In this document: positions 7,503 through 45,138 of the stretch, piece after piece | How the letters are laid out: each line of letters begins with the position of its first letter | How positions within the stretch are numbered: the stretch's first letter is position 1 | Assembly (NCBI GenBank): GCA_934130085.1 | Contig: CAKOXK010000003.1 | Coordinates: forward strand, 3,070 to 67,069 | Source of the DNA: an uncultured Clostridia bacterium | GTDB lineage: Bacteria > Bacillota > Clostridia > TANB77 > CAG-508 | Direction of reading: 5' to 3' | Length of the DNA: 64,000 nucleotides | The notes under the pieces: model-generated | Told to the model about the DNA's origin: nothing | Seen by the model: the letters and a program-made list of their open reading frames with translations, nothing else | The model's database searches: none | Made by a program: the position numbers and the translations under genes

Positions 7503-7518
7503 TAAATAATTTAAATAT

Positions 7519-7665: not shown

Positions 7666-7747
7666 GTTGATTTTTATTGATTTTTTATTCATTTCTATTT
7701 ACTAGTTATAGCCCAATTTTTACTTTTTTATAACAGAGTATATCAAT

Positions 7748-11035: not shown

Positions 11036-11068
11036 TATTATATTTCCTTTCTAATTTTTTATACTTTC

Positions 11069-12526
11069 TTATTTTTTGAATTCTGGTTGATATTTTTCTC
11101 TAAATTTTGTTTTTTGTTCAAATGCATAAGCTGCATTTAGAATTGTTTGTTCCTGGAATCTGTTGCCGATTAATTGCATTCCTATTGGCATTCCTTGTTT
11201 ATCAACTCCTGCTGGAATTGATATTGCTGGAACACTTGCTATGTTTATTGAAACTGTACATATATCAGCTAAATACATCTCCATTGGGTTTGATGATTTT
11301 TGTCCTATATCAAATGCAGTTGTTGGTGCGACTGGTGTTAATAATACATCATATTTTTTAAAAGCATTATCAAATTGATTTTTCACAAAAGTACGAACCT
11401 TCTGAGCTTTTTTGTAATATGCATCATAATAACCAGATGATAATACATAAGTACCAAGTATGATTCTTCTTTTTACTTCTTCTCCAAATCCCTCTGTTCT
11501 TGTGTTTTTGTATAGTTCTTTTAAGTTTGTATAATTCTTTGTTCTGTAACCATATCTGATTCCATCAAATCTTCCTAAGTTTGATGATGCTTCAGCACAT
11601 GCGATTATGTAATATGTTGCCAACGCATATTTAGCAACATCAAGTGAGAACTCTTCAACCTCTGCGCCCATGCTTTTATATGTTTCTATTGCCTCTTTTA
11701 GTTTTGATTTTACTTCTTCATTTATTCCGTCTCCGAAGAATTCTTTTGGAACTCCAATTTTTAATCCTTTTACATCATCTTTCAAAGATTTTTCATAATT
11801 AATCTTTTCAACCTTAGCTGACGTTGAATCTTTCTCGTCATACCCTGCAATTACATTTAGTAGAATTGCTGCATCTCTTACGTCTTTGGTGATTGGGCCT
11901 ATTTGGTCAAGTGATGAAGCAAATGCTACTAAGCCATATCTTGAAACAAGTCCATAAGTTGGTTTTAGACCAACTACCCCGCAAAATGATGCTGGTTCTC
12001 TTATTGATCCTCCTGTGTCAGATCCAAGGGCCCAAGGAACTAAGTTTGCCGCAACGGCTGCAGCAGATCCCCCTGATGAGCCCCCTGGAACTTTATTTAA
12101 ATTCCATGGATTCTTTGTAATTTTCATTGCTGAATTTTCAGTTGATGAACCCATCGCAAATTCATCCATATTAAGTTTGCCAAGACTAATTATTTGATTC
12201 TCATTTAATTTTTCTACAGCTGTTGCATCATAAGGTGATACAAAGTTCTCAAGCATTTTTGATGCGCATGTTGTTTTTACATTTTTTTCGCAAATATTAT
12301 CTTTTATACCTATTGGTATTCCCGATAGTCTACCTGTTCTTGATTCATCTATTTTTTCTGCTTGTTTTTTTGCTTCATCAAGTGTTAAAGTAATAAAGCT
12401 TTCAACATCTTTTTCTTTCTCATTTATTCTTTTTTCATAAGCTTCAACAATCTCTTTTGATGTTAACTCATTTTTATCTAACTTTTCTATTAGTTCATGC
12501 ACGGTTAAGTTTGTTATATCACTCAT
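11069..12526 (-). CDS. gatA: Glu-tRNA(Gln) amidotransferase subunit A
   Basis: 485 aa. Amidase signature [12 protein letters not shown] and IKDNI. Confidence 0.95.
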
Positions 12527-25030: not shown

Positions 25031-26023
25031 TTAACTATTTTTATAACAATCAAGTACTTTCTTAAATAATTCCCTCGTATTATCATACGTAATTTTCTTA
25101 AGTGCCTCATTAAAATCCAACCATTTTATATCTGATATTTCGCTTTCTTGTCTCTCTATGTCTCCTCCTACACATTTGGCAATAAATAATACTACTTCTT
25201 TTAGCTTTCCCTTGTCTGTTACATACTTCATTGTATATCTCTTATTTTCATCAATGGCTACATCTAAATTTGTTTCTTCTTTTACTTCTCTAGTTGCAGT
25301 TTCTATTTCCGTTTCGTCTTTTTCAACATGACCTTTTGGAAATCCCCAATGACCTTTAGTTTGTTTGATTAATAATACTTTATCATCATTTATAATGATG
25401 CATCCACAAGACTTCTCCATCGGTTTATTGTGAACATTACTTAATAACTTTTCCAACTCTATTTCCGCTTTCTTTACAAAATAATTGTCTGTATAAACTG
25501 GTATCCCTATTTTATTTACTTGCTGAATTAGTTTTTCTACAGTATCTAACTCTCCTCTTTCCTCAGTTTCTATTTCGACCAAATTATCTCCATTTTTTAT
25601 TTCTTTAATAGCCATTTGAAGTCCGTCTTTTTCATACACTATATCATTTTCTTTGATGTTCATAATTTCTTTATATCCTATTGCTGTTAATATTTCTTTA
25701 GCTTCTTCAGTGTTTAAAATTTTACAATTAATTGATTTTTGATTTAATATATTTCCCTCTTTATCAAAATTTTTAATTTTAAATGTAATAAATTTCTCTC
25801 TGCCTTTAGTCATCTTTTCTATAATTTCTCTTACCAACACCGCTTTAGATAAAATATTTCTCACATTAGTCTTATCTAAATTTACATTTGCAGGTATAAA
25901 ATATGTATCATCCAGAGAAAATTTGTCAACAATTTTAAATCCTTTTTCTTCTACTATCCTATAAAATTCGTTCAATTGACATTTAATTTTTAGCGTTATC
26001 TCATTGCTCTGTTTCGAACTCAT
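25031..26023 (-). CDS. CYTH-domain / Nudix hydrolase fusion protein
   Basis: N-terminal half resembles CyaB/CYTH: EITLKIK in place of ExExK, then DDTYFIP, VLVREI and LVEIE. C-terminal half has the Nudix box GFPKGHVEKDETEIETATREVKEETNL. Confidence 0.7.
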   Translation of the reverse strand: MSSKQSNEITLKIKCQLNEFYRIVEEKGFKIVDKFSLDDTYFIPANVNLDKTNVRNILSKAVLVREIIEKMTKGREKFITFKIKNFDKEGNILNQKSINCKILNTEEAKEILTAIGYKEIMNIKENDIVYEKDGLQMAIKEIKNGDNLVEIETEERGELDTVEKLIQQVNKIGIPVYTDNYFVKKAEIELEKLLSNVHNKPMEKSCGCIIINDDKVLLIKQTKGHWGFPKGHVEKDETEIETATREVKEETNLDVAIDENKRYTMKYVTDKGKLKEVVLFIAKCVGGDIERQESEISDIKWLDFNEALKKITYDNTRELFKKVLDCYKNS

Positions 26024-26323: not shown

Positions 26324-26475
26324 GATTGTGATTTTCGAGAATTTTTGTTCACTTGAGTTTTTATTAGTTTAGATAGGGTTAGAGCAAATTTGTAAGATTA
26401 TGAAATAGGTTAAATTTGGTTGTTTTTTGCAACGATTGTCACCAATAATTTTTAATAAAAATGGAGGTTTTAACA

Positions 26476-26778
26476 ATGAAATTTTGTGATATTTTAAATA
26501 ATAATGAAAGTGAAAATTTATTAAAAGACTGGTTAGATCTTAGAGAAGAAGAATTATCTCATATGGATGAAAACGATAAGAAACATCTAATTAATTTCGA
26601 TGATTGTTCTGAAAATATTTTAAATAATGTTACTGGAGAAAGTTATAACTATGTTTCTAAAAAATTAGAATTAATGTATGATGATTTTATTGATTATTGT
26701 TCATATTGGAATAATAAATATTATATGAGTGGCTTCAGTGATGCAATTAAACTGATTTTAAGTGGATTAAAATTATAA
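26476..26778 (+). CDS. small conserved island-border protein, paralogue of 35589..35879
   Basis: Shares KDWLDLREEE / KEWLEFREE, YWNNKYYMSGFSD / YWNEKYYRNGFVD, and the same position just inside the left tRNA remnant. Preferred start is 26476, after GGAGG. Confidence 0.55.
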   Translation: MKFCDILNNNESENLLKDWLDLREEELSHMDENDKKHLINFDDCSENILNNVTGESYNYVSKKLELMYDDFIDYCSYWNNKYYMSGFSDAIKLILSGLKL

Positions 26779-26786
26779 CATCAAAA

Positions 26787-26806
26787 GGCGAGTTAATTCT
26801 CGCCTC
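26787..26806. terminator. bidirectional hairpin between convergent genes
   Basis: GGCGAG / CTCGCC stem with a 6-nt loop, lying between stops at 26778 (+) and 26807 (-). Confidence 0.45.
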
Positions 26807-27448
26807 TTAATCATTTTGATTTATCCAATTAATATGAATACACATTTTTTCATTATCAGTAATTGTATCTTCGTTTATTATTAATTCTTTATCATTATAT
26901 ATAATACCATATACATTCATTAATATAAATTTAACAAATTGTAAAAATGACATATTACTTTTTATTGGAATTCTGCATTTCTCAATATTACTAATTGTCA
27001 TATGTGCAGCTGGATGTTCAACATCTTTATGATTTTTTATATCATAATCAACCCTAATTAATAATGGAATTCCCCCAATTTCATCACTATCTGCAAAATT
27101 TGTGCTTGCTTCACTATTATCATCCTCTATTTCATCTGATAATTTCATATAAAGCATTCTTTGCTTTATAATCATATTATTTTCTATTTTATATTCTATT
27201 TGAAATATGCTTTTATCTTTTAATAGAATACTATATTGTTTTTCTCTTCTTAAAGTTTCTATTACTTCTTGTGCATTTATATTTTTATCATATAGTATAT
27301 TGGAAATAGTATTGTTTTTACCACTCCATGTTAAACTATTACTATCTTCTTTAAATTCTATATTATCTATTATCAAATTATTTTCTATAAGAAATGTAAT
27401 TATATTATGATATTCTTTTATAATTCTTTTTTTTATATCACTCTTCAT
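26807..27448 (-). CDS. hypothetical 213-aa protein, translationally coupled to the upstream helicase
   Basis: Its start ATG 27448 overlaps the helicase 3' end by 11 nt (AATGAAGAGTGA). Contains HPAAHMTISN...CRIPI. No family assigned. Confidence 0.55.
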   Translation of the reverse strand: MKSDIKKRIIKEYHNIITFLIENNLIIDNIEFKEDSNSLTWSGKNNTISNILYDKNINAQEVIETLRREKQYSILLKDKSIFQIEYKIENNMIIKQRMLYMKLSDEIEDDNSEASTNFADSDEIGGIPLLIRVDYDIKNHKDVEHPAAHMTISNIEKCRIPIKSNMSFLQFVKFILMNVYGIIYNDKELIINEDTITDNEKMCIHINWINQND

Positions 27449-29561
27449 TTTTCTTCTCTTCTATCATTTTTATAAATTCTTCTTTTTGTTCTGGAGTATT
27501 TAAATCAAATATTTCTTTTACTATTTCATTCATTATATTGGTTTCGCCACTTTTTTTCATCTCTAATATAATTTTTCTTACATCTTCAATTTTAGCTTTA
27601 TCTTTATCTCCTATATCTTTATTATTCATTACTATATTTTTCAAATCATCCTTAGTAGGATATTTATCAAAAACTAATTTATAATCATTCTGTTTTATGA
27701 TATTATATTCATTACAAAGTTTATCCATTCCTTCACCATATCCCAAAACTTTAACCCATCCTTTGCTTCTAGTAATTGCTGTAAACAAAGAATTTCTATC
27801 CTTAGTACCGGTTAAAGAATTTACACATTTTTGAGCATTTAGAATAACAACATAATATGCCTCATTTCCCTTTGCTCTAAATATACTAGAATATACAACA
27901 GAATCATTTCTAAAAAAATCTTCTCTATATGCTGAACCTGCTAAATGTATATTTATATTTAGTTCTGGAGTTTCTTCATTTTCAACAAGTTGCTTAGCAT
28001 ATAATTCTCCTTTGTTTTCTGCATGAGCTAATGTATCCATATCTATTATTATTATTTCATTATATGGAATTCCATCATCAATTGCTTGTTTAATAATTTT
28101 TATTGTTTTACTTTCTTGTTCAGACTTATCATTACAATTTATAAAATCTATTATTTGTTCATCTTCATCGTCTAGAAAGTCTGGACTGGTCTCTTTATCT
28201 CTGTATAATGTAGTCTTTTCTCCTTCAATTATACTACCACTCTCTACTTTATATCCTATTGCATCCCATACATCTTTTGAACTAGGAAATTGCACTAATC
28301 CTTCTTCTCTATATATTCCACAGCCTATTGCATGAGCAGTAACTATAACTTTACTTTGGTTTCTATAGCAAACTTTTAATGGAGTATCAGATTTTATATC
28401 AGTTTCAAATAATTCCTTTGGTTCTTTCATAGATACATCATTTAAGTTCTGTAATTCATCATATGCATATACTAATCTTTTTTCATTAGTTAATGAATTT
28501 AAACATATTTTATAAAAGTTTTCTTTAAAATCTTGTGCCTCATCAATAATGATACAATCATATATTTTTTTAAATTCTTTTATTTCTTTTAATGCTTCTT
28601 CACAAACGCCTTCAAATGCATTTTTATTTCCGTATCTCATTTTACCATAATTAAATGTTTGAGGATTTATTTCGTTTGCTATACATATCTCATAATATAC
28701 ACCCTTGTTTGTACTTGATCCCCATGCATTCATTATTTTTAATTTTTTATAATCGGGTGATTTACCATCATTCTTTAATTTATAAAATTTATCTATAAAA
28801 TTATATATTTGGCCACTTAATGATCTAGTTTGAAATGTAACTACTATATTCCAGTCGGGATGCTTTGTATGTAATTCAACTGCTTTTCTTGCAAGTACTA
28901 TGGTCTTACCACTTCCTGCCATTCCTCTAATTCTTTGAATTCCTATAGGATCTGTTAATATGGCTTCCATTTGATTTTCATCATATCTTTCTATTTTATC
29001 ATTCATTTCAAGAATTTTCTTAGCTTTTTTCTTATTAACATTTAAATCATCTAATAAGACTCTTTTTCTGATTCCATATGCCTCTTGTATCCCGGAGATA
29101 ATTTTATTAATTTGATCTTCTGAAAATATGCTATCATTTCCTTTTTTTAATATATTTATAAATTCTTCTACACTATTAATTATAGGATATCCTTCTTGTG
29201 CGAGAATAGGATTATCAGAATTATTATATGTTATTATATTCATATTAAAAAATAGATTTCTTCTGTTTAATAAAAATTTGTATTTTTTTAATTTACTTTC
29301 CAACTTTGTATATATTTCATCTTGTATATCGGCATAATCTATTACACTTTGATTCAAAACATTTATAACAAATACACCTTTATTACATATAATTATTGAA
29401 TCAATTATAATATTTCTATTACTAATTTGATCTATAAAAATAGGATACCCTATATACATTTCACCTGAAATATCATCAAATTCTTCTTTTATTTTTTCTG
29501 TGATTTTCTGCATAATTTCCATCTTGCATGTTTCTAAATTATTTCCTATAACTTTTAACAT
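27438..29561 (-). CDS. superfamily 1 (UvrD/COG3972-like) helicase with an N-terminal nuclease-like (NERD/PD-(D/E)xK-related) region
   Basis: Walker A GMAGSGKT, motif II IIIDEAQDF, YDELQNL, and C-terminal FRAKGNEAYYVVIL and LFTAITRSKGWV. The N-terminal segment IDSIIICNKGVFVINV resembles a NERD core. GGGAGG SD. Confidence 0.75.
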   Translation of the reverse strand: MLKVIGNNLETCKMEIMQKITEKIKEEFDDISGEMYIGYPIFIDQISNRNIIIDSIIICNKGVFVINVLNQSVIDYADIQDEIYTKLESKLKKYKFLLNRRNLFFNMNIITYNNSDNPILAQEGYPIINSVEEFINILKKGNDSIFSEDQINKIISGIQEAYGIRKRVLLDDLNVNKKKAKKILEMNDKIERYDENQMEAILTDPIGIQRIRGMAGSGKTIVLARKAVELHTKHPDWNIVVTFQTRSLSGQIYNFIDKFYKLKNDGKSPDYKKLKIMNAWGSSTNKGVYYEICIANEINPQTFNYGKMRYGNKNAFEGVCEEALKEIKEFKKIYDCIIIDEAQDFKENFYKICLNSLTNEKRLVYAYDELQNLNDVSMKEPKELFETDIKSDTPLKVCYRNQSKVIVTAHAIGCGIYREEGLVQFPSSKDVWDAIGYKVESGSIIEGEKTTLYRDKETSPDFLDDEDEQIIDFINCNDKSEQESKTIKIIKQAIDDGIPYNEIIIIDMDTLAHAENKGELYAKQLVENEETPELNINIHLAGSAYREDFFRNDSVVYSSIFRAKGNEAYYVVILNAQKCVNSLTGTKDRNSLFTAITRSKGWVKVLGYGEGMDKLCNEYNIIKQNDYKLVFDKYPTKDDLKNIVMNNKDIGDKDKAKIEDVRKIILEMKKSGETNIMNEIVKEIFDLNTPEQKEEFIKMIEEKKNEE

Positions 29562-29587
29562 AATTTGCCTCCCATCTATTATTTATA

Positions 29588-30529
29588 TTAATTTTTATTT
29601 GGTTTTAAAAAATGCTCTATCATACTTGCATATTGATCTTGTGCATTTAAGCAAGTGTCTATTAAATAGCCTTTTTCTTTATTAGTTTGATATTGATTTA
29701 ATCCCCTATAGTAGAATAATTTATCTTTATCTAAAATAATAAATGGTACAATATTATTTTTTAAACATTCTTTAAATGCGATTATTCTACCAACTCTTCC
29801 GTTGCCATCTTGAAATGGATGTATCTTTTCAAATTTAGCATGAAATTCTATTATTTCATTTATTGTTTTTTGTTTTAAAGATTCATACCATTCTAATAAT
29901 TTTTTCATATCTCTTTCAACATTTTTCGGTTCCGTAGTTTTAAGTCCTCCTACTTCATTAGATAACTTTTTATAATCTCCAACTATAAACCAATCTTTCC
30001 TGCTATCTGACGTTCCCTCTTTTAATATTTTGTGAAATTCTTTTATCATTTTTTCTGTTAATTTTTTATATGCTATCTCTAACATATAATCAACTAATTT
30101 AAAATGATTAGCTGTTTCTATAACATCATCTAAATCTGTTATCGTATCTTTTTCTGCTAATAATGTATTAGTCTCATAAATATACCTAGTCTGATCTTCT
30201 GTAAGTTTGCTTCCTTCAATGTGATTTGTATTATATGCAAATGTAATTTGAGTATTGTGATATAAATTCCCCTTTAACTTCATATTTTTTTGTTCTCTTA
30301 ACACTTCTAAAATATTTATTTTAGATATATCAAAATCATCTTCTTTAATCAATTCATCAATAGAAACATTAAATATTTCCGCTAATCTTTTTAATGATTC
30401 AATATTAGGTTCCAATGTCCCAGATTCATATTTAGAAACCGTTGCTGGTTTTACTCCTAATATCTCTGCAATCTCGTTTTGAGTCATATTCTTATTTTCT
30501 CTATATATTTTTATTTTTTCTCCTAACAT
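29588..30529 (-). CDS. XRE-type HTH / Fic (AMPylase-type) fusion protein
   Basis: The N-terminal HTH_3 pattern is NMTQNEIAEILGVKPATVSKYESG. The Fic motif is canonical, HPFQDGNGRVGR. Preferred start is ATG 30529, after AAAGGAGAG. There is only a 26-nt gap to the helicase gene. Confidence 0.8.
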   Translation of the reverse strand: MLGEKIKIYRENKNMTQNEIAEILGVKPATVSKYESGTLEPNIESLKRLAEIFNVSIDELIKEDDFDISKINILEVLREQKNMKLKGNLYHNTQITFAYNTNHIEGSKLTEDQTRYIYETNTLLAEKDTITDLDDVIETANHFKLVDYMLEIAYKKLTEKMIKEFHKILKEGTSDSRKDWFIVGDYKKLSNEVGGLKTTEPKNVERDMKKLLEWYESLKQKTINEIIEFHAKFEKIHPFQDGNGRVGRIIAFKECLKNNIVPFIILDKDKLFYYRGLNQYQTNKEKGYLIDTCLNAQDQYASMIEHFLKPNKN

Positions 30530-30657
30530 AAAAAACTCTCCTTTTTGATTATAATAATATAATATCATATTATTTCCAAAGAAGAAAGTTTTTATTTAAT
30601 TTTTATTTATTTTTTCTAAAATAGAATTTGCTTTTTAATTAATTAATGATTACAATT

Positions 30658-32930
30658 TTATTCATTTTTATATTCTTCGCTATCTCCCGCAACAATTAAT
30701 TGATTTTCTTCATTGTCCTCATCTTTTTTATACTCAATCTCTTTTTTAATAAATAGTGATTTATTTGTAATACTAAAGAATTTATCGAAAAAGTCTAATA
30801 ATTTATCTATTACAACATTCTTTTTCTTTAGTCTAGATCTGTCTTTTGCAAACATATCCATTGGTGGCAATACAGATGATATTCCTGTTCCATCTGTTTC
30901 TATACTTCCTTTATCAAAAGATTTCTTAATAAATTTGTATGTTTCTTCTGAATTCAGATTCTCCTCCTTAATTATTTTGTCTAATTCTTCTCTCTTTCTA
31001 CTATTCATAAAAATCTCAAAATCAGTATATACATCTTAACTCACATTTAGTGAATCTATAAATTCTAGAATTAAATCTTTTTTATTTCTTAAGTCTGGAC
31101 TTGACATGATTGCTTTGTTAATTGTTACTAGCACCTCTTTATCTTGCATATTGCTATCATGATATTTTTTTACTAAAGCTAAAATATAATCTATATTTAC
31201 TTCTATTTGCTTTATAAGGTCCATTTCAAAAACTATATCTTCTATTATATCTGTTGAATCCACCTTTGATTTTTTTCTAAAATCATCATAAATATCTTGA
31301 TATACACTATGGTAATCTTGAGTATCTCGTTCATTTAGCAATTGTTCATCTTTAAATTGATCAAATGAATTTAAAATATTAGTTACTTTTAAAATTCCAC
31401 CATACAGTTTTATAAATTCCTTTTGTTTTTGTTCTCCAATAATTGGTTGCCCTATTGGCAATTTTTCTTTTAATTCTTCAACAAGTTCTTTATAACCTTT
31501 AAAATCCTTTCCTTTGTAATCTTCATAACCATAATAATAATCTTTATATGGCTTTAATAAAGCTATTCCTGAAGCATTACTATCTCCAAATAAAGCTAAT
31601 GCATCATTTAATTCTTTTTCTAAATTTCTAAATGAAACAATGTTACCGTAAGTTTTAACAGAATTTAATATTCTGTTTGTTCTTGAAAATGCTTGTATCA
31701 GTCCATGATATTTCAAATTTTTGTCCACCCATAGTGTATTAAGTGTTACAGCATCAAAACCAGTTAAAAACTTATTTGCAACTATTAAAATATCAATTTC
31801 TTTGTTCTTCATTCTTAGTGAAACATCTTTATAATAATTCTGAAATTTTTCTCCTGTTGTGTCATAACTTGTTCCAAACATTTTATTGTAATCTTTGATT
31901 GCTAACTCAAGAAAATCTCTATCACTCTTATTTAGCCCTTCTGTAGTTTCAGAATTTTCATCGTAAACTCCATCTACAACTTCATCATTTGCTCCATAGC
32001 TATAAATAAGAGCAATTTTCAAGTTATGGCTTTTATTATTTTTAAATTCACTATAATATTTTTTAGCCATATTTATATTAGCCACAGCAAAAATTGAATT
32101 AAGTCCTTTTATATTTGATTTACTCTTTATTTGTTTAGCATCTCTATTTTTAGCTACTTCCACAACATTTTCTAATGTATTATATACATATGACTCATCA
32201 TTTTTAGTTTTAGAAAAAAATGTTCAATTATATATTTTGTAATTGCTGATATTCTTGTTTTGTTATCATAAGCTTTTTCAATATCAATTTTATATACTTT
32301 TTCATCCTTTACATCTTCTTTAATATCAACCCTACCAATATATTCATATCTAAATGGTAATACATTTTTATCACTTATAGCATTTGCTATTGTGTATGTA
32401 TGAAGTCTTTCTCCAAATAATTGACCTGTAGTTTGCATTATTCCTTTTTTTGTTTTGGCATTCCCTGTAAATATGGGAGTTCCTGTGAATCCAAATATTA
32501 TCCATTTTTTAAATTTGGGGGTTATATTTTTGTGCATATCTCCCAACTGACTTCTATGGCATTCATCAAATATAAAAACTATTTTTTTGTTATATGCTTT
32601 TGAGTGGTTATTTTTCTTTATAAAACTATCTAACTTTTGAATTGTTGTAATAATTATTTTAGATTTGCTATCTTCTAGTTGTCCTTCTAATATTTTAGTA
32701 TTAACATTTGAATTAGCACATCCTTTTTTGAATCTATCATATTCTTTCATTGTTTGATAATCCAAATCTTTTCTATCTACTACAAATATAACCTTATCTA
32801 TATATTCAAGCTTACTTGCTATTTGAGCTGTTTTAAAAGAAGTCAATGTTTTTCCTGATCCAGTTGTATGCCATATATAGTCACCAGCTTCAATTGTTCC
32901 ATTTATTATTTGTATTAATTTTATTCATAT
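30658..32930 (-). pseudogene. hsdR: type I restriction enzyme R subunit (hsdR), 5'-truncated and split into three frames
   Basis: Fragments carry GSGKT (upstream of ORF 32172..32846, with no start codon), DECH (FIFDECHRSQ), GFTGTP, and QAFSRTNR (motif VI, in 31036..32163). A typical HsdR C-terminal tail lies in 30658..31008. The nuclease domain is missing, and no hsdM or hsdS is in the window. Confidence 0.8.
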
Positions 32931-32949: not shown

Positions 32950-35172
32950 TTACTTTAATAAGCAACATTGCTTATATTTCTTGCCACTACCACATGGGCA
33001 CAATTCATTTCTTCCTATTTTTTTGCTTTCTAACTTTATTCCTCGTTTACATCTCAAAGCTTCTGCTAAATTTAAAATTTCTGTTGTTCTTGCACCATAA
33101 TCAAGTGGAGATAAAATCCTTAAAAAGACCTTAACAATTTCATCTTTTTTATCATAATATAAAAATACAACTAAAACCTTATTGTTTTTAGCAAGATACA
33201 TATTTGCATATGCATCTTTAAATAAAACATCTTTATCTATATCTTGTTCGTCATAAATAGATGATATACATACACCATCTATGTCATTTTCATCCTTTTT
33301 AGTTAACGTCATATATCCATATTTAGGTCTTCTGTTATTTTTGTAAAATTCTTTTGATTGTAAAATTATTTTTTCTATTTGATTTTGTGTGTCAAAATTT
33401 AGGTTTAATAAAAATGTAGTTAAATATGTATGGTTTTCAAGTTCTATATTTTCTTCACAAAATTCTATAACTTTTTTTATTTCTTTTGGAGTTTTCCTAA
33501 ATGGTTTACTTACTTTTGACTTCTTAAACCATAAACTATTATAATAAGTATCTAACTCTTCCATCCAATCTTCTCCACTAATAGCTACTATTCCTAATTC
33601 TCCCATTATGTCATTTTCTTCTTCAAAGTCTTTTATTCTCTTATTTATATACTCATTATAAAAGTTATATTCAATCCACATTCCTAAATGATATAATTCG
33701 TCTACTAAGTCAATATTTTTATTACCAATAGCCTTTTTTCTTTGTAATAAATATTGTATAAAATAACAAGGATGCTGTCTGAAATATTCACTATATACTC
33801 TTAAATCATCTAAACAAAAAACAAGTGTATTTTCGCTTAATGATAATATTTTCACTTTATCTATTCTTGCTTCAATATCATTAAATGCCTCTGCTGTTAT
33901 TATAATTTTAAATATCTTTGTGTCGTCGTTTATTTTTATTTCAGCTTTTTTATTTCTTGTTTTTTTATTATTACTATCAAATATAGTAACACTCTTCTTA
34001 TCAATTAAGCATTTTTCAAGAGAGTCTTGTTGCTGATTCGCTTTTACTATTAAATTGTTTAATGTTTCTTTATGTGAATCCAAATCACTACTTGCTAATT
34101 CCGGAGTAAAATTTCCGGCTTTTACTTCAATAATGAAAACATTATTATCATATATTAGAAGAATATCATTTTCTATAATTTTTTGACTATATTCATAATA
34201 ATTTCCAATATAACTCTGTTTAGTATTAAATATATTTTTGAAATAATTTAATACTACTTGTTCCACATTAGAAGTATATCTTGCTCTAATTTCTTCTCTT
34301 TTATTTTTTAACTTTTGGCACATTCCTAGTATTGCTATTCTGTCAAAATTATCATAAAATTGTTGTTCCAATAGTATATAGTAATTATCATCAATTTTTA
34401 TTAATGGTCTATACTTTATTTTATTTATTAATCTATCCCAATTTTCTATACTTATATTATCCCAAAACTCTTTATATTCTTCTTTATCAACAATAAATTG
34501 CTCTATAAAAAAAGTAGTCCATTTAGTATTTTCCTGAATATTTGCCAATTCCAAACTAAATATATTATTTGAATATTCTTCTATTTTTTCTTTCTTTACT
34601 ATACTTCTTAACTCGTTTGCACTATTTTCAAATTTAAAATAAAAATTCTTCTTTAATTCTAATATTCCATTATACAAATCATTTAATGAGAAATTATATG
34701 TATCTAAAAATTCTTCTTTTAAACACTCTAACAAGTCCTTATGATGCTGCACTTCAAAAACATCATACCTTTTACCACTCCAGTCTTTAAAAGAATCTGA
34801 ATGCATTATATAATCTGCCTCATCTTTTGTTAATTTTTTAGAAAATCTTTGTACTAATTTATATCTATAAGTGCATATTTGTAACTCATCTAATATTTTT
34901 TCAATTTTATCAAAATCTTTTTGTTGTATTTTTTTTGACCTAAAATCACTCTCATTTATACAAGAAAACAATATCTGCAAATGCAATATTTTTTTACTTT
35001 TTAACCATCGTTCATCTCTATTTACATCTTCTCCATAGCTACTTTTATATTCAAAATAGAAATATGAAAAAATATCATACATTGAAAATTGCTTAATATA
35101 ATTTATAATCTCATTAATTTTATTTTTAAATTCTACCTGAAGTTCTTCTGCTGTTGAAAATGTATTTTTCAA
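32950..35172 (-). CDS. 740-aa protein with a PD-(D/E)xK (NERD-like) core and a C-terminal SEC-C motif
   Basis: DILLIYDNNVFIIEVKAG gives the D...ExK arrangement. The C-terminus is CPCGSGKKYKQCC. The start is TTG at 35172, after GAAGGTG. Confidence 0.7.
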   Translation of the reverse strand: MKNTFSTAEELQVEFKNKINEIINYIKQFSMYDIFSYFYFEYKSSYGEDVNRDERWLKSKKILHLQILFSCINESDFRSKKIQQKDFDKIEKILDELQICTYRYKLVQRFSKKLTKDEADYIMHSDSFKDWSGKRYDVFEVQHHKDLLECLKEEFLDTYNFSLNDLYNGILELKKNFYFKFENSANELRSIVKKEKIEEYSNNIFSLELANIQENTKWTTFFIEQFIVDKEEYKEFWDNISIENWDRLINKIKYRPLIKIDDNYYILLEQQFYDNFDRIAILGMCQKLKNKREEIRARYTSNVEQVVLNYFKNIFNTKQSYIGNYYEYSQKIIENDILLIYDNNVFIIEVKAGNFTPELASSDLDSHKETLNNLIVKANQQQDSLEKCLIDKKSVTIFDSNNKKTRNKKAEIKINDDTKIFKIIITAEAFNDIEARIDKVKILSLSENTLVFCLDDLRVYSEYFRQHPCYFIQYLLQRKKAIGNKNIDLVDELYHLGMWIEYNFYNEYINKRIKDFEEENDIMGELGIVAISGEDWMEELDTYYNSLWFKKSKVSKPFRKTPKEIKKVIEFCEENIELENHTYLTTFLLNLNFDTQNQIEKIILQSKEFYKNNRRPKYGYMTLTKKDENDIDGVCISSIYDEQDIDKDVLFKDAYANMYLAKNNKVLVVFLYYDKKDEIVKVFLRILSPLDYGARTTEILNLAEALRCKRGIKLESKKIGRNELCPCGSGKKYKQCCLLK

Positions 35173-35588: not shown

Positions 35589-35879
35589 ATGAATAATTTT
35601 AAAGAAGTTAATGATGATATTATCAAGGAATGGTTAGAATTTAGGGAAGAAACCGCATTCTGCAATATGACTCCTCAAGATAAAAAATATTGTATATATT
35701 TTGATGAATTGGCTGAAAAAATAATGAATAATGTACCAAAACAAAATAAGAAATATGTTCAAAAACAACTAGATCAGCTTGATAAAAATTTTATGGATTA
35801 TCTTTGCTACTGGAATGAGAAATATTATAGAAACGGATTTGTAGATGGTTCTCAGTTAGTTATGGGGTGTTTTGATTAA
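35589..35879 (+). CDS. small conserved island-border protein, paralogue of 26476..26778
   Basis: See 26476..26778. It has the same size class, the same motifs and the same position relative to the tRNA remnant. Confidence 0.55.
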   Translation: MNNFKEVNDDIIKEWLEFREETAFCNMTPQDKKYCIYFDELAEKIMNNVPKQNKKYVQKQLDQLDKNFMDYLCYWNEKYYRNGFVDGSQLVMGCFD

Positions 35880-36805: not shown

Positions 36806-37627
36806 TTATTTTAAGTTATTTATATCATGTCTTGATGCATATATATCTAATATATCTTTTGCAAATGAATCAAATGCTAATGTTGAATATTCAATATCAA
36901 AACTGTCAGAAATTAAACCATCTGCTTTTAATTCTTGACTATTTTTATATAATTTAGGTACATCTCTGTTAAAATCAACAATTAATAAAGTACATCTCTC
37001 ATATGAATAACTTTCATCAGTTAATTGTCTGTTATTTATTGAATTAAAGAAACTTATATATTTTTCAATATTAGTACTATTGTTTTTAAAAGCTACTATC
37101 TTTTCTTTTACTAAAATGTCATCATATTCATGTGTTGGTATAAGATAAACTTCTCCAAGTACAATATCATTATATCTCTTATGTAAATTTTCTGCTTCAG
37201 CAAACGTTCTCTCAAATAATGTATCTGCATTCTTTGCTAAACTACTCATTTGGCTACGAACATTTATTACAAGAGAATTTTTAGAAAATTCATATCCATA
37301 TGGATCTAATTTATTTTCAAATTTCAAAGGTCCCCAATTAATAATAATTGGTTTCTTATCTAAATTAGTTGGTAGAACACAAACATCTTGATCTTTTTGT
37401 TTTAAAAATCCTGCAAATTTTATCTCTGGTTTTCTCTTATTTAAAGGAGGAAAAATCTTCTCTGGATTTACTCCATTTTTTATCAATTCATACTTTACTG
37501 CATCATGAATTAAATTTATTAATTCAGAAGATCTGATCATTGATTCCTTACCTTTTGTTCCATTTTCTTCTATTGATTTTTCAATCATTTTCTTAAATAA
37601 AACTAATTTTTCATCTATATATTCCAT
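36806..37627 (-). CDS. putative type II restriction endonuclease (assigned by context)
   Basis: Lies on the same strand as, and downstream of, the N6-adenine methyltransferase. No motif is assigned with confidence. Preferred start is ATG 37627, after GGGGGA. Confidence 0.4.
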   Translation of the reverse strand: MEYIDEKLVLFKKMIEKSIEENGTKGKESMIRSSELINLIHDAVKYELIKNGVNPEKIFPPLNKRKPEIKFAGFLKQKDQDVCVLPTNLDKKPIIINWGPLKFENKLDPYGYEFSKNSLVINVRSQMSSLAKNADTLFERTFAEAENLHKRYNDIVLGEVYLIPTHEYDDILVKEKIVAFKNNSTNIEKYISFFNSINNRQLTDESYSYERCTLLIVDFNRDVPKLYKNSQELKADGLISDSFDIEYSTLAFDSFAKDILDIYASRHDINNLK

Positions 37628-37739
37628 AATTCCCCCTAATATCCTATTTTTTGACATTCTATCATAAATATAAAAAAAAATCTATAAATTGTATTAAAAA
37701 TTCCTTTTCTATGTTATAATTTGCCTAGGAGGAATTATT

Positions 37740-38200: not shown

Positions 38201-38215
38201 ATTTTTCCTGTTTTT
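38186..38215. terminator. bidirectional terminator
   Basis: AAAACAGGAAAA / TTTTCCTGTTTT 12-bp stem with A and T tracts on both sides. Confidence 0.6.
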
Positions 38216-40031
38216 ATATTTTTATATTATATTTTTCAAAAAGCATTTCATCTATTCTCATTTTATTGTCACTATTTAAAATTTCTAATTCTTCTTTATT
38301 AAAATCTGGAATAGAAAACTTCTCAATATATTTTTTTTGATAACAATAATATCCACCTTCTATTGCATAGCTTGTATTGCTAATGTAATATTTCATAATT
38401 GCTGAATTTAAAATTTTACCTAAAATATTTAATGAAATCTTATCATTTTCAAATATAGCATATCCATTACAAAACAATGCATTTTCATTGTCTATGTATT
38501 TAAATTTAGGACTCTTAGCAAAAGTTGGGAAAAGCATCTTTTTACCATATTTGTTTAGACCTTGCGTTCTCCCATACGCATACCACCCATATGGATTTCC
38601 TTTTCCTTTATCTCTTTTATCTAATTCGCTTTTCATTTCCTCAAGATATATATATGCTTTTGGAAATTTTTCTTCTAAATCTTTTTCTTCTATCAATTTG
38701 TATGTTCCATTATCTTTAAAATATGGAAATATAATATATTGCATTGCTTCATTTTCATTTTGACATTTCTTTAATTCTGGAACTTTGTATATTGGCTTAA
38801 CAATATCATCTTCTATTTCAAATCTTATGCCATTTATATTTTTGTAAAATCCAAATTCATCTTTATCAACTAAATACACGCCATCTTTTAATGTAGCTAT
38901 ACCTGTTCTTATGAATTCCTTAATTGGCATTTTTTGTTTTTCTATTTTTCTTATATTGTCAAGTGTATTCTTGTTAACTAATTTCCATCCATTTTTATCT
39001 AATAATTCTATATTCATTGATTCATATTTCATACTACTAAGCATGTTTTCAATATCATCACACTTATCTATAACACAATAATTAAACGTTTCATTACATT
39101 TTTTATTTAATTTGATTATACAATTATATGTTCTAACAGGTTTAAATATCATATTATCTGAAAAGTCTATTATAGATTCTATACTTTTTTCATTTTGTAA
39201 AACCTCTCTTAACGTATTAGCTGATTTTATAGTTAATACATTATTGGGAATAATAAATTCTAAATCTCCTTCATCTTTCAAATATTTTAAACCATTTTCA
39301 ATAAATGCATAAAATATATTAAATACACCTTCTTGCGTTGTTTTAAATTTATCTTTTAAGAACTTTATAGTTTCTTTTTTCATATCATGTGGATTTACAT
39401 ATGGTGGATTACCAATTATATAATCAAATTTTTTTACATCAAAAATAGTATTCCAATTTTCTTTTAAGCTATCTTCACTAACTATATTATATTTTATATC
39501 TTTTTTAAGATCTAGATTATTTATTATACAGTATAATTCAATTGCTAATTGACATCTTCTTGCATTTTCCTCCATAATATCTATTCCATAGATATTATTT
39601 TCAATTATTGTATTTATATCAATATTATATTTTTTATGAATATATTCTATTGCAGATATTAAAAATATGCCACAACCACACCCTGGATCAATAATTTTTA
39701 TATTAGAACTCCAATTTTCAATATCATTTAGACTATCTTGTACAATAAAATCAGATATATATTTAGGAGTAAAAACAATTCCATTTTCATTTTTTTGATC
39801 TTTATCTAATAGATATTCAAAAAACTCTATTATATATTCTATATCTATTGGAAAATTATCATCTAATAAAGTTTTATATATTTCTATATTTTCTTTATTA
39901 TCAACATCAACATCTGATTTCACTTGTTCTCTTATATATTCAATTAATCCTTCCTCAATTTCAGTAATTTCTTTATGAGCTATTTTTTTATATAAATTCT
40001 CAAAATATATTAATCGTTTTTCTCTTTCCAT
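38214..40031 (-). CDS. N6-adenine DNA methyltransferase (gamma class, Eco57I-family-like)
   Basis: Motif I IIDPGCGCGIFL and motif IV IIGNPPYV. A long C-terminal region is consistent with a target-recognition domain. Confidence 0.85.
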   Translation of the reverse strand: MEREKRLIYFENLYKKIAHKEITEIEEGLIEYIREQVKSDVDVDNKENIEIYKTLLDDNFPIDIEYIIEFFEYLLDKDQKNENGIVFTPKYISDFIVQDSLNDIENWSSNIKIIDPGCGCGIFLISAIEYIHKKYNIDINTIIENNIYGIDIMEENARRCQLAIELYCIINNLDLKKDIKYNIVSEDSLKENWNTIFDVKKFDYIIGNPPYVNPHDMKKETIKFLKDKFKTTQEGVFNIFYAFIENGLKYLKDEGDLEFIIPNNVLTIKSANTLREVLQNEKSIESIIDFSDNMIFKPVRTYNCIIKLNKKCNETFNYCVIDKCDDIENMLSSMKYESMNIELLDKNGWKLVNKNTLDNIRKIEKQKMPIKEFIRTGIATLKDGVYLVDKDEFGFYKNINGIRFEIEDDIVKPIYKVPELKKCQNENEAMQYIIFPYFKDNGTYKLIEEKDLEEKFPKAYIYLEEMKSELDKRDKGKGNPYGWYAYGRTQGLNKYGKKMLFPTFAKSPKFKYIDNENALFCNGYAIFENDKISLNILGKILNSAIMKYYISNTSYAIEGGYYCYQKKYIEKFSIPDFNKEELEILNSDNKMRIDEMLFEKYNIKI

Positions 40032-41419: not shown

Positions 41420-41435
41420 AGAGCTATAGCTCTCT
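41418..41435. terminator. perfect palindrome between convergent genes
   Basis: AGAGAGCTATAGCTCTCT overlaps both stop codons, at 41419 (+) and 41434 (-). Confidence 0.5.
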
Positions 41436-41835
41436 ATTGTTTTGCAAAAGCATCCATTGCTTTTGTGTATAACTCTTTTGAAAAAGGCTCCTTTTCTTCA
41501 GGCTCATAATATATTTCAATCTTTTCATTTGAAACACCTGCTAATCCTATATTAAATTTTTTAAATTCTTTAATATTTTCCAAAGGTGCATCGATATAAT
41601 CATTATCCATAAATACATAAGCTTTTTTTGAAAAAGATCTATATCTATACGCTTGTATTAAAGCTCTTTTCCAATTTTTTAATTTTGCTTCAATACTAAT
41701 AATTTCTTTATTATTTATCATAATATCTGGGATTCCAAATAATCCAATCGGCTCTAAAAGTATTTCATCTTTTTTATATTCGTTCAATAATTCATTTACA
41801 CATGTATCAACCATTTTTTCTTCTGTTCTAAACAT
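41434..41835 (-). CDS. small PD-(D/E)xK (Hjc/restriction-endonuclease-fold-like) protein; third gene of the kinase operon
   Basis: GIPDIMI ... ISIEAKLKNWKRALIQAYRY gives the D-(x)n-ExK arrangement. GGAGGG SD. There is a 12-nt gap to the upstream gene. Confidence 0.55.
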   Translation of the reverse strand: MFRTEEKMVDTCVNELLNEYKKDEILLEPIGLFGIPDIMINNKEIISIEAKLKNWKRALIQAYRYRSFSKKAYVFMDNDYIDAPLENIKEFKKFNIGLAGVSNEKIEIYYEPEEKEPFSKELYTKAMDAFAKQ

Positions 41836-41847
41836 ATTATCCCTCCA

Positions 41848-43032
41848 TTATTTACTTAGTTTATATTTATTGTACATATTAATTGCATTTGTCCAATGTA
41901 TTAAATGATCTCCGTTGCTTCTCTCATCTAACAATACTCCACTATCATTAATCTCTTTGTAATATATCATACTTTCCTTAATTTTTTCAAGTATAAATTG
42001 ATATCTTGCATCATATTCTCCAGGTAATTCTTGTAATAATTTGCTATATTCACAAAAGTAATATTTATAAATTTCTGGCTTTGTAAAGTGCCATTGGAAA
42101 GTTGGTTCAAACAATTTTATTTTATATTCATTATCTTCAAATAATTCATCGTATTTATCATATAAAGTTTCTAATGGTGCTAAATATGTATATTCTACAT
42201 TCTGTAAAAGTTTCGCACTAAATACCCTTGGATTTGGTCCCTGTCTTTTACCAACATTTGATTTAAATTTCTCAATGCTAAAACATCTAGTATTTTCATA
42301 TGCTCCGATAGAAATAGACGTTATATCAGATAAAGATAATATAAATCCTTCTATATCTGTATACCCCAAATGTACTAGCAATTCGTTTTCTCTCAGTTTA
42401 TCTATAAACTTCATTAGTTCAAATAAATATTTTTCATCTCTTACTCTTTTATATGTTTCTACATGTTCAGGAATAATATAAATTCCATCTATTGCCTGAA
42501 AACTTGTAGCAAAGCTTAATATCTCTTCTCTTATTTCTTTATCAAATAAATAATTATCCTTTAAAATTAATGTTAAAAATACTGGTTTATTAACATTTAA
42601 TTTTTCTATGGCACTTACAAAAGGAATTATATATAACTCTTTTTGTATTGCTAAATATTTATCTGTAAAATTTTCTTTATAAACACATGGAATAATTATT
42701 CTATTAAAAGAATTATTTTTTTGAAATTCTACACATTTATAAGCATCATCATATGCTTTTTCTTCATAGTTAACAGTTGAATAATCATTATTCATAAAAG
42801 TATTTGGGAAAAAATTATATGTTTGAAGTTTTTTCTTATCGCTTTTGGGTAAGTAATATTGTGGATCAAAAAAAGAGGATTCTTTTATTTTTAAGTCTAA
42901 TTTTTCTACTTTTTCTTTTTCAAAATCAGATGGAGAAAAAATCAACCCGTCTCCAATTTTATCTTTGCAAAAACTATCTATATTCCAAATAGTATTATGT
43001 CCACATTGATGATAAATTTCGATATTATTCAT
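41848..43032 (-). CDS. 394-aa protein of unknown function; second gene of the kinase operon
   Basis: The AAGGAGG SD is embedded in the kinase 3' end, with a 1-nt gap after the kinase stop. Recurrent strand-end motifs (YHQCGHN, FFDPQYY, RIIIPCVY, GIYIIPEH, HLGYTD, SIGAYEN) hint at an alpha/beta-barrel fold. No family assigned. Confidence 0.6.
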   Translation of the reverse strand: MNNIEIYHQCGHNTIWNIDSFCKDKIGDGLIFSPSDFEKEKVEKLDLKIKESSFFDPQYYLPKSDKKKLQTYNFFPNTFMNNDYSTVNYEEKAYDDAYKCVEFQKNNSFNRIIIPCVYKENFTDKYLAIQKELYIIPFVSAIEKLNVNKPVFLTLILKDNYLFDKEIREEILSFATSFQAIDGIYIIPEHVETYKRVRDEKYLFELMKFIDKLRENELLVHLGYTDIEGFILSLSDITSISIGAYENTRCFSIEKFKSNVGKRQGPNPRVFSAKLLQNVEYTYLAPLETLYDKYDELFEDNEYKIKLFEPTFQWHFTKPEIYKYYFCEYSKLLQELPGEYDARYQFILEKIKESMIYYKEINDSGVLLDERSNGDHLIHWTNAINMYNKYKLSK

Positions 43033-43033
43033 T

Positions 43034-43849
43034 TTATAATTCCTCCTTTAAAAAGTTTTCTAATGCTTCTTTGAAACTTGTGTATTTTCTATAGCGATTA
43101 AATGGTTGTACTTCTAATGTTTTTAAAAAAATATTCACAAACTTTCTACTTTCCTTGGTATTCTTTATATCAATTCTCTTGTTTCCTCCTATAATATTAT
43201 CTTTAATTCCTAATCCGTTTCCCACCCAAGTAGGATCAAATGGATTATGCTTGTAATACAATTCCATTGCTATTATTCCTAAAGAAAAGAAATCACTTCT
43301 AGGACCAATTAGATTTTTCTGATTTAATAATTGTTCTGGTGATGCATATGGAATTGTACATGGACCAATTGGCATAATAGTTTTGGTAAGACTTTCGTCT
43401 AATAAGTTTCTTGCAATTCCTAAATCTATTATGACTGGCTTTCTTGTTATCTTTGAAATAATTATATTGTCTGGCTTTAAATCTCGATGTACAATTTCCT
43501 TTTTCCAAAGTATTTGCATTCCATTTATAATATCTAAAATTAGTTGTGAAATATCTTTTTCACTCTCATAGTCATTCATACAATTGCTTAATGTATTTCC
43601 GTCAATATATTCTTCTAAAATATCGAATTCACCATTCGCTTCGTCATATGAAAAAAAATAATTTTTAGGAAAAAATTCTGATTCAATTGTTTTTAATATA
43701 TTAACTTCTCTAATTATTCTTTTTAATCCATTAGCAGTCTTACATTTACCTTTTTTATAAATCATAATTTTACCATTATGCTCAACCAGATATACACTTT
43801 TTTGTCCACCAGGTTTAAGCTCTTTTATAACATTTAACTCCATTTTCAA
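43034..43849 (-). CDS. Hanks-type (eukaryotic-like) Ser/Thr protein kinase; first gene of the operon
   Basis: Glycine loop PGGQKSVY, catalytic loop HRDLKPDN, DLG (the DFG equivalent) and YASPEQ (the APE equivalent). It is a single kinase domain of 271 aa. The start is TTG 43849 or ATG 43843, after GGAGGG. Confidence 0.85.
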   Translation of the reverse strand: MKMELNVIKELKPGGQKSVYLVEHNGKIMIYKKGKCKTANGLKRIIREVNILKTIESEFFPKNYFFSYDEANGEFDILEEYIDGNTLSNCMNDYESEKDISQLILDIINGMQILWKKEIVHRDLKPDNIIISKITRKPVIIDLGIARNLLDESLTKTIMPIGPCTIPYASPEQLLNQKNLIGPRSDFFSLGIIAMELYYKHNPFDPTWVGNGLGIKDNIIGGNKRIDIKNTKESRKFVNIFLKTLEVQPFNRYRKYTSFKEALENFLKEEL

Positions 43850-43881: not shown

Positions 43882-44152
43882 TCTTTTACTACAAAATACT
43901 AGGATTGCTTACTTATTATTATTACTTTTATTCGTATTTTTCGACTTTTTTTGACAAAAAGTTTATATTACATTTTATAAAGTATTTTATTGTCCTATAT
44001 ATTTTCTTTTATGAATTTTTGTGTAATCTTTGTAACACTTGAAAAATAAAGAAAAACTACTAGAATTGGCATTAAAATTGTAGTATAATCATGACAATTA
44101 AATATTAACAAACTTCCACCCATAATTATGCTGAAAGGAGATGAAAAAAGCA

Positions 44153-45138
44153 ATGGCTGGAAGTATTGAAAAAAGAGGTGAAAATACTTATAGGTTAGTC
44201 GTTTCAGGTGGTAAAAATCTTGATGGTACTAGATGTAAAAAAACAAAAACTATACATGGTACAAGAAAAGATGCTAAAATAGCTTTAGCAGAATTCATTA
44301 CAGAAGTAAATCGTGGATTAGTTCCAGAAGGAAAGTCAATTACCTTTGAAGAACTCTTTTATATTTGGGATGAAAAATATGCTTCAAAAGAATTAGCACC
44401 AAAAACTTATTCAAGATATATTGGAATATTAAAATCTCGAATTCTTCCATATTTAGGTTCATTTACTTTAGGCAAAATCAAACCAACAGATTTAATGAAC
44501 TTTTATGATATATTAGAAAATGATACCCAGATAAAGAGAATAGCAAAAAATAATGGTCAAAGAACTTTAAAACCATTATCTCCAAAAACAATTCTAGAGC
44601 ACCATAGACTAATAAGCGCCATGTTACAAAATGCAGTATACTGGCAGTTGTTACCTTCTAATCCTGCTAGAAGAGTTAAACCACCAAAGACTAAGAAACC
44701 TAAAATGGAATTTTTGATAAAGATACTAAAACCGAAAGTTCTAATAGAGTTGTTCCAATACCAAATTATATTACAAATGCTCTTCTTGAATATAAAGAAT
44801 AGTATGACGAGCAAAAGACATATGTGGAAATAAATGGATTAATTCTAATAAACTATTTGTACAAGATGACGGAAAACCTATGCATCCAGATACAATTGGA
44901 AAATGGTTTAAGCCTTATATTGAAAAATTAGGACTACCTATAATTAAATTTCACGGTATTAGATAGTCATACAAATGCTACGCTCATGATTGCTAATACT
45001 GTTGATATAGCAACAGTATCTGCAAGACTTGGACATGCAAGTATTAACACTACTATAAAATACTATGTGCACCCACTAGAAAAAAATATGAGAAAAGCAG
45101 CGTATGTATTACAAGACCTATTAATAGGTGACAACTAA
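44153..45138 (+). pseudogene. tyrosine recombinase/integrase, multiply frameshifted
   Basis: The N-terminal SAM-like/arm-binding part is intact (SIEKRGENTYRLVV..., KTYSRYIGILKS). The catalytic part is scattered over three frames with stops (...HGIR*, then ARLGHASINTTIKYYVHP). Confidence 0.8.

Follow-up and report, generated by a model that had tools for sequence, protein, structure and literature searches.

Within a 64-kb stretch of the genome of an uncultured Clostridia bacterium (contig CAKOXK010000003.1, positions 3,070 to 67,069; hereafter the window, in whose coordinates all positions are given), three co-directional open reading frames (ORFs) lie between 26780 and 30630 on the minus strand in the order Fic, helicase, 213-amino-acid (213-aa) ORF, and the subject here is what these three genes have to do with each other and with anti-phage defense. 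The first (29588..30529, minus strand) encodes a 313-aa protein in which an XRE-type helix-turn-helix (HTH) is fused to a class-II-type Fic domain, as judged from Pfam, PADLOC, a PDB match and motifs. The second (27438..29561, minus strand) encodes a superfamily 1 (SF1) helicase of 707 aa, and the third (26807..27448, minus strand) a DUF2290 protein, presumed to be an effector, that was assigned via Pfam, PADLOC and an AF2 model. They are faced on the plus strand by a small convergent gene of 105 aa (small105; 26461..26778), for which no match was found in Pfam, PADLOC or NCBIfam.

The longest ORF encoding the HTH-Fic protein extends from 30568 to 29588 (326 aa). Since a strong ribosome binding site (RBS; AAAGGAGAG, located at 30544-30536) precedes the ATG at 30529, and since gene callers chose this same start (313 aa) on identical public contigs, ATG 30529 is likely the true start. 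Between the Fic stop codon (TAA, 29590-29588) and the ATG of the helicase (29561) lies a 26-nt minus-strand spacer (29562..29587) that contains an RBS (GGGAGG, 29573-29568) and is hairpin-free, with a fold energy of 0 and no match in a terminator scan. The helicase gene in turn runs 11 nt into the 213-aa ORF (29561..27438 vs. 27448..26807). Between the DUF2290 gene and the convergent small ORF lies an intrinsic terminator hairpin (26780..26811, minus strand; found by terminator scan and folding), the core of which (GAGGCGAG-AATTAA-CTCGCCTTTT) is followed by a T-run and folds with an energy of -18.3 kcal/mol (z = -6.2; 0 of 200 shuffles fold equally well). An earlier annotation of this locus (referred to as the original prediction) had listed the Fic motif with its 26-nt gap before the helicase, the 11-nt overlap and a closing hairpin at 26787-26806, and all of these were recovered from the sequence, the hairpin with the same core in the scan of 26811..26780. 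Moreover, the promoter and terminator that it regarded as fatal to its proposal, if present between Fic and helicase, are absent from the spacer. Because the 26-nt gap holds only an RBS and no terminator, Fic, helicase and DUF2290 very probably form a single transcription unit in this genome.

By sequence, the pair of helicase and 213-aa gene is clearly a divergent copy of the named Helicase+DUF2290 system (Rst_Helicase+DUF2290 in DefenseFinder, helicase-DUF2290 in PADLOC), since the helicase gives a full-length match to the PADLOC model Helicase (PDLC03002; 6.1e-176, 584.7 bits, residues 12-674, profile positions 10-684 of 707) and the 213-aa protein matches DUF2290 in both Pfam (PF10053; 2e-25, 89.9 bits vs. 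a cut-off of 25, profile positions 14-204 of 204) and PADLOC (4.3e-29, 99.6 bits). The locus thus holds a DUF2290 protein and the system-specific helicase, encoded by adjacent genes on the same strand with the helicase first. The original prediction had been unable to place the combination in a named system and had treated the 213-aa protein as an uncharacterized partner; the profile searches overturn both statements, and recognition as an already described system was an outcome that it had itself named as decisive against its proposal.

Helicase+DUF2290 was described by Rousset et al. (2022) from a P4-like satellite hotspot of Klebsiella pneumoniae and blocks T7 (PMC9122126); as described there, the validated system consists of the helicase and the DUF2290 protein only. 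It is also catalogued as a defense system elsewhere (PMC10952713, PMC12278908). No mechanism was found reported for it in the accessible portions of the literature mentioning DUF2290, in which the term was found in no title or abstract. The copy in the window shares with the described system a ~700-aa SF1 helicase directly followed by a ~220-aa DUF2290 protein, and the pair is in both cases the cargo of a variable hotspot. However, it derives from an uncultured low-GC gut Firmicute, apparently lacks a promoter of its own and is joined into an HTH-Fic operon. Moreover, its helicase is only 36% identical (over 678 aa) to the enterobacterial helicase of an E. coli IncI plasmid, which has a DUF2290 partner and scores 988 bits on the same PADLOC model.

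The helicase carries the motifs GMAGSGKT (Walker A; residues 213-220, at 28925-28902), IIIDEAQDF (337-345), FRAKGNEAYYVV (561-572) and TAITRSKGW (594-602), all as originally predicted, and Walker A, Walker B and the remaining helicase motifs are invariant in 14 homologues. It scores 145 bits against the NCBIfam equivalog of STM2767-family helicases (NF053713; cut-off 550 bits) and is related to that family while lying outside the equivalog. The predicted NERD-like segment at the N-terminus is a weak item: the Pfam NERD match stays below threshold (E = 0.0021; 19.0 bits vs. a cut-off of 22.1), and 4 of the 14 homologues show it. The conserved D54 and N67 fall at the positions expected for the acidic and lysine catalytic residues of NERD, as placed by eye and not by profile alignment. 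The likening of the helicase to Nhi is not supported, since none of the Nhi models of PADLOC matches it. A single-sequence structure model of the helicase was unusable (pLDDT 38).

For the DUF2290 protein, an AF2 model built on a 34-sequence alignment (pLDDT 84, pTM 0.83) predicts a mostly beta fold with helices at the flanks and a disordered acidic loop (residues 103-127). A Foldseek search of this model against PDB and BFVD returned nothing below E = 0.2 (the best match having E = 0.28), and sequence and profile searches of PDB came back empty. The family comprises 1311 representatives at 50% identity, nearly all of which are stand-alone proteins of ~210-235 aa. Among 54 diverse representatives, D78, R132, H145, H149 and R159 are invariant, and all five are present in the window protein; R97, D134, C158 and P161 are near-invariant, and the family motif reads IRxDYD...HPxxH...CRIP. 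Since invariant polar residues are thus shared across the family, the pattern suggests a putative catalytic or metal-binding site. A PD-(D/E)xK reading of D78...E85-x-K87 was dropped, as K87 is not conserved.

A helicase sensor next to a small effector is also the layout of Hachiman (HamA nuclease and HamB helicase) and Gabija (GajA and the UvrD-like GajB), as described in PMC12278908, and GajB matches the helicase core weakly (7.5e-4). In contrast, no HamA (DUF1837), HamB or GajA model matches the window proteins, and the Gabija AB complex chain 8tk0_A aligned to the DUF2290 model with only E = 2 in Foldseek. The likeness to Hachiman and Gabija serves as a working analogy and not as membership.

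Loci for comparison were drawn from genomes, metagenomes and plasmids; a pattern-based scan of a genome collection for DUF2290 yielded 7 loci, which were supplemented by contig look-ups and plasmid records. The helicase gene lies directly 5′ of the DUF2290 gene, with an overlap or at most 2 nt between them, in all 15 lineages (helicases 47-100% identical to that of the window) and on 5 of 5 plasmids, which span Pseudomonadota, Actinomycetota, Cyanobacteriota and Bacillota. The co-occurrence of the 213-aa family with the helicase, which had been proposed as a check, is thereby borne out. The Fic gene, however, precedes the pair in only three of the 15 lineages, i.e., the window, L010/L011 (98.6% helicase identity) and L031/L032 (89%), and it was found neither in the other 12 lineages nor on any of the five plasmids. 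It is missing from all 11 lineages at ~50% helicase identity, and in L025-L030 (86.6% helicase identity) the gene upstream is a 172-aa fragment similar to the N-terminus of PD-T4-1 and not Fic. Conversely, the HTH-Fic protein forms >120 clusters at 87-93% identity, vs. 5 clusters at >=80% for DUF2290, and of 93 other Fic loci (80 from metagenomes, 13 from contig look-ups; Fic 76-94% identical), none holds a helicase or DUF2290 gene of this kind. Rather than being a subunit of the helicase system, Fic is an independent and far more widespread gene that leads many cargos. Of the single module in the original prediction, a shared transcription unit remains very probable, but a dedicated system with Fic as a co-occurring member does not hold. 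As a side observation, locus L022 carries a classical VbhA-Fic toxin-antitoxin pair (10387-11273), next to a GmrSD gene, located 2.7 kb 3′ of another helicase-DUF2290 pair and on the opposite strand; since this Fic is unrelated to that of the window, Fic genes evidently turn up repeatedly in islands of this kind without being linked in an operon.

The boundaries of the mobile part of the locus could be read from the homology between the window and L025, which spans exactly 26780-29579, with 86.6% identical helicases inside and unrelated flanks. This homology begins 18 nt before the helicase ATG and ends at the terminator, and it marks a swappable minus-strand cassette (26780..29579) consisting of RBS, helicase, DUF2290 and terminator. 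As no more than 18 nt of upstream sequence are conserved, the cassette appears to be a promoter-less RBS-to-terminator unit, and it is probably the Fic promoter that drives the pair here. When the window was compared with Fic loci carrying another cargo, homology instead ended at the Fic stop codon and resumed where the small gene has its 3′ end. In L025, the cassette is followed by the start of a small ORF (4100-4464) that by eye resembles an IS200/IS605-type transposase; this transposase-like ORF and the PD-T4-1-like fragment on the other flank place the same cassette in an unrelated mobile context.

Between the Fic gene and the small gene, at least 13 cargo architectures were found, all co-directional with Fic, and the 93 other Fic loci hold at least 12 unrelated cargos other than helicase/DUF2290, several of which carry annotations as established or candidate defense genes. 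Among them are AbiA (with reverse transcriptase and HEPN, 3e-164), PDC-S53 (an SF1 helicase), PDC-S28 (DEAD/DinG-like), PDC-M49A with a 101-aa partner, AbiJ_NTD3/Ser-Thr kinase (Stk2-like) with a 342-aa partner, a PDC-M36A-like protein and a STAND-like protein of 1306 aa, while five cargos (473, 452, 379, 264 and 260 aa) gave no annotation match. Homologues of small105 (42-70% aa identity) are located 3′ of the cargo and convergent with it in 42 of 84 Fic loci, and none was found 5′ of Fic with the exception of a paralogue in the window. In L002 (Clostridium sp. CAG:389), a small-gene homologue (7466-7726; 45% aa identity) is likewise located behind a helicase-DUF2290 pair, a distant one with 51% helicase identity and no Fic within the 4.5 kb upstream of it. 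Directly 5′ of Fic, 31 different families were counted among 62 loci; a type I restriction-modification (R-M) system was considered as a fixed upstream partner and rejected, as it was detected in only ~1/3 of the loci.

DUF2290 gave no match in the phage collection and only one in viral contigs, and no Fic gene was found in viral contigs; since both are nearly absent from these sets, the slot does not appear to be obviously prophage-borne. BrxR/CapW-type HTH regulators sit 5′ of diverse defense systems. Similarly, RptR is reported to be an HTH regulator of this kind (PMC12255303), and with these the window locus shares a DNA-binding gene at the head of defense genes. With the P2/P4 defense hotspots (PMC9122126), it shares conserved flanking genes around interchangeable defense cargo. 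It differs from P2/P4 hotspots in being chromosomal rather than part of a phage or satellite, and from both hotspots and HTH regulators in that the flanking HTH is fused to an apparently intact catalytic Fic domain and that many cargos lack a promoter and begin right behind the stop codon of Fic. A description of such a Fic-headed slot was not found in our literature searches.

The HTH of the Fic protein occupies residues ~6-60 of the 313-aa form, and both parts were recognized by Pfam (HTH_3, 3.9e-18; Fic, 1.3e-18). The Fic motif HPFQDGNGRVGR is located at residues 237-248 (29821-29786) and is preceded, on its N-terminal side, by the class-II-type inhibitory motif TNHIEG at residues 101-106 (30229-30212). 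At the sequence level, the chain therefore combines the HxFx(D/E)GNGRxxR and (S/T)xxxE(G/N) signatures of class II Fic AMP-transferases, and the Fic domain is predicted to be catalytically intact with its inhibitory motif in place. The closest solved structure is 4x2c/4x2e (E 1.8e-29), which we take to be Clostridium difficile CdFic. Among defense models, the single-gene Fic candidate PDC-S04 of PADLOC gave a match (2.8e-107; residues 85-322 of the 326-aa ORF, profile positions 4-239 of 244), although its profile does not cover the N-terminal XRE HTH of the window protein. The PADLOC SoFic model matched partially (8.3e-25), and with 35.2 bits the protein falls outside the SoFic equivalog of NCBIfam (NF046030; cut-off 550 bits). 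With SoFic, PDC-S04 and CdFic it has in common a canonical Fic motif preceded by an (S/T)xxxE(G/N) motif; the window Fic differs from them in having a paired-palindrome promoter and in leading variable cargos.

The 4.3-kb block common to the window and L010 has an overall nt identity of 96%, but its 5′ portion of Fic, which encodes the HTH (30280-30572), reaches only 73-83%, vs. 96-100% for the remainder of Fic, the helicase and DUF2290. This difference suggests a recombination breakpoint, or diversification, within the Fic gene.

The upstream region of Fic contains a predicted promoter (TTGGAA-17-TATTAT, at 30551..30579 on the minus strand, via promoter scan) with an extended -10 element (TGATATTAT, at 30567-30559; TGATATAAT in most relatives). 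Two operator-like palindromes of the form TTC-N7-GAA accompany it on the same strand, i.e., a proximal one (TTCTTCTTTGGAA, 30574..30586) overlapping the -35 region and a distal one (TTCTATTTTAGAA, 30614..30626) located ~95-100 nt 5′ of the Fic ATG, with 40 nt between their centers. In 64 distinct Fic upstream regions, the distal site was present at -95..-110 in 48, the proximal site at -55..-65 in 58, and both together in 44, against a background of 0.70 sites per kb; elsewhere in the 200 nt upstream, all 64 regions together held a single further occurrence. The TTC/GAA half-sites are invariant across Fic upstream regions. Moreover, the promoter block hardly varies in 18 of 19 loci with differing upstream genes, and ~75-110 nt 5′ of Fic are conserved independent of more distant upstream content. 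Such paired palindromes would be a layout typical of autorepression by an XRE-type dimer. The original prediction had left the Fic protein as either a regulator or a toxin, and of these the regulator part fits, since the conserved promoter carries two TTC-N7-GAA palindromes.

Downstream of Fic, two classes of gaps were observed. Eight cargo types, that of the window among them, begin 10-27 nt behind the Fic stop codon with a hairpin-free gap, whereas in the PDC-M49, PDC-S28 and PDC-S53 types a Fic terminator is followed by a further ~120-150 nt. This terminator, seen in L035, L055 and L058, is located just past the Fic stop codon and before the cargo (AAAGCAAAATAAT...ATTATTTTGCTTTTTT, ~-17 kcal/mol). 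The tightly coupled variants, window included, have lost Fic's own terminator.

We consider it probable that 26780-29579 is a Helicase+DUF2290 anti-phage cassette that is carried as promoter-less cargo in a Fic-headed hypervariable defense slot, with the conserved, self-promoted XRE-HTH/Fic gene as the 5′ edge and the small convergent gene as the 3′ edge. The HTH-Fic protein would autoregulate by binding to the paired TTC-N7-GAA palindromes of its promoter. Because only an RBS lies between Fic and helicase, the helicase and DUF2290 genes would be read from the Fic transcript, and the 11-nt overlap might couple their translation. By analogy with Hachiman and Gabija, the SF1 helicase could be an ATP-driven sensor or motor on phage DNA, and DUF2290 a helicase-activated effector, most likely a metal-dependent hydrolase or nuclease of unrecognized fold, with D78 / R132 / D134 / H145 / H149 / C158 / R159 as putative active constellation.

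Several points weigh against this interpretation. Since three cargo variants retain a Fic terminator, co-transcription of Fic and cargo, although very likely in the window, is not universal across the slot. A promoter inside the 3′ part of Fic is conceivable, as a consensus-like match is present there (29919-29890), although promoter-like matches in that region are no more numerous than in shuffled sequence. The co-orientation of the cargos could partly reflect a general strand bias of the region, and an enzymatic role of DUF2290 lacks a sequence or fold match in PDB and BFVD. Furthermore, a Lactococcus Helicase/DUF2290 homologue gave no protection from the phages tested (PMC11381338), and deletion of the system in Pseudomonas aeruginosa had only phage-specific effects (bioRxiv 10.64898/2026.09.16.752016).

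The alternative that survives best, although we regard it as unlikely, is that Fic is an independent single-gene abortive-infection or defense toxin of the PDC-S04/SoFic type that has no influence on the cassette, with the palindromes serving autorepression only, as in toxin-antitoxin systems. The strong PDC-S04 match (the SoFic models being weaker), the intact catalytic and inhibitory-type motifs and the terminator that Fic owns in three cargo variants would all suit such a toxin, and proteins of the SoFic type confer defense through abortive infection mediated by AMPylation (PMC12249575). However, the PDC-S04 candidate showed no defense in the only recorded native-host test (bioRxiv 10.1101/2024.12.20.629700), and behind Fic the close starts of the window cargo and of at least 7 other types come with no terminator and leave no room for a promoter. 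The 18 nt that the cassette brings along upstream likewise imply that its transcription must come through Fic.

It is also conceivable, but improbable, that the pair is not primarily anti-phage and serves mobile-element maintenance, addiction or DNA repair, or is an inactive relic in a decaying island. The pair is indeed frequent on plasmids beside toxin-antitoxin and partition genes, the island shows decay (its integrase is truncated, and the type I restriction gene hsdR is split into three), and the Lactococcus homologue was inactive. Nevertheless, both ORFs are full length with helicase motifs and invariant DUF2290 residues intact, neighbors and alternative cargos are overwhelmingly defense genes, and a family member studied by Rousset et al. 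protects against T7. A dedicated three-component system, in which Fic would be the toxin, effector or specific regulator of the pair, is very improbable and largely refuted by the distribution of Fic and pair, because the tight co-directional spacing, the block of Fic, helicase, DUF2290 and small gene shared at 96% nt identity between the two contexts of window and L010, and the further linkage in L031/L032 are outweighed by the 12 of 15 lineages (among them one whose helicase is 86.6% identical) and 5 of 5 plasmids in which Fic is missing, by the 0 of 93 other Fic loci that hold the pair, and by a validated system described in the literature as helicase and DUF2290 only.

If the cassette is the cargo of a Fic-headed slot, one might tentatively go further and regard the XRE-HTH/Fic gene as a general plug-in controller of defense genes, i.e., an autoregulated leader from whose promoter, with its paired TTC-N7-GAA operators, any cassette that lacks a promoter and was inserted downstream by recombination would be expressed, a suggestion that we hold to be doubtful. 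The intact Fic domain would then couple cargo expression or activity to an infection signal, e.g., via auto-AMPylation or AMPylation of a target, and the slot would be a ready source of new defense genes, including the unannotated and the 1306-aa STAND-like cargos.

A new three-gene system, as first proposed, does not stand, and PADLOC or DefenseFinder would label the pair automatically. What remains useful is a divergent member of a known system from a Firmicute, in which the invariant DUF2290 residues D78, R132, H145, H149 and R159 offer targets for mutagenesis, together with the evidence that its cassette moves as a promoter-less RBS-to-terminator unit. The confident DUF2290 model, matching no solved fold, would be a useful addition as a prediction. 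The slot itself is chromosomal and hypervariable, occurs in human-gut bacteria (the relatives of the window locus stem from human-gut metagenomes) and has at least 13 alternative cargos, of which roughly half are unannotated and thus candidate new defense genes. It also provides a testable case of a putative Fic-domain transcription factor heading immune genes. The Fic-headed slot, which had not been anticipated, is moderately interesting as a candidate source of defense genes and, possibly, for a Fic-based regulator of immunity.

The surroundings (25-45 kb of the window) form a low-GC defense island, and no tRNA or Rfam features were found in the window. Directly 5′ of Fic, a decayed R-M system is represented by an HsdR (type I restriction) gene (30658-32846, minus strand) broken into ORFs of 224, 375 and 116 aa (SWI2_SNF2 / T1R_D3 / EcoR124_C), from which the HSDR_N part is missing and near which no HsdM or HsdS was seen; an intact HsdR (~1055 aa) is located at the same place in L055, L057 and L068. 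The site expected for the HsdR N-terminus is occupied by a 740-aa protein (32950-35172, minus strand) that matches NERD weakly (E = 0.0033) and has a SEC-C zinc motif at its C-terminus, beyond which no defense model matched. The paralogue of the small gene (35589-35879, plus strand) has 62-63% aa identity to the slot-end genes of other loci, vs. 44-46% for the gene at 26461-26778. It stands at the end of a run of genes on the minus strand (GNAT, type II restriction enzyme, methylase) that has no Fic at its head, and may mark a second slot or its remnant. The restriction enzyme of this run (PADLOC REase_II, 1.1e-111; 36806-37657) lies near an Eco57I/MmeI-like methyltransferase with TaqI_C (38214-40031), both on the minus strand. 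A Ser/Thr kinase (PD-T4-6 / mad6-like, 1.7e-34) is followed by unannotated ORFs of 394 and 133 aa (41434-43849 for the group, minus strand), and beside the kinase lies a truncated integrase (44141-44833, plus strand) of which just the SAM-like and arm-binding domains of the N-terminus are left; this region is probably the edge of the island. On the other side, a CYTH-like (class IV adenylate cyclase-like) N-terminus is fused to a NUDIX domain (25031-26023, minus strand), the latter matching PDC-S07 with 5e-14, and NUDIX genes recur near the cassette in L010, L025 and L036.

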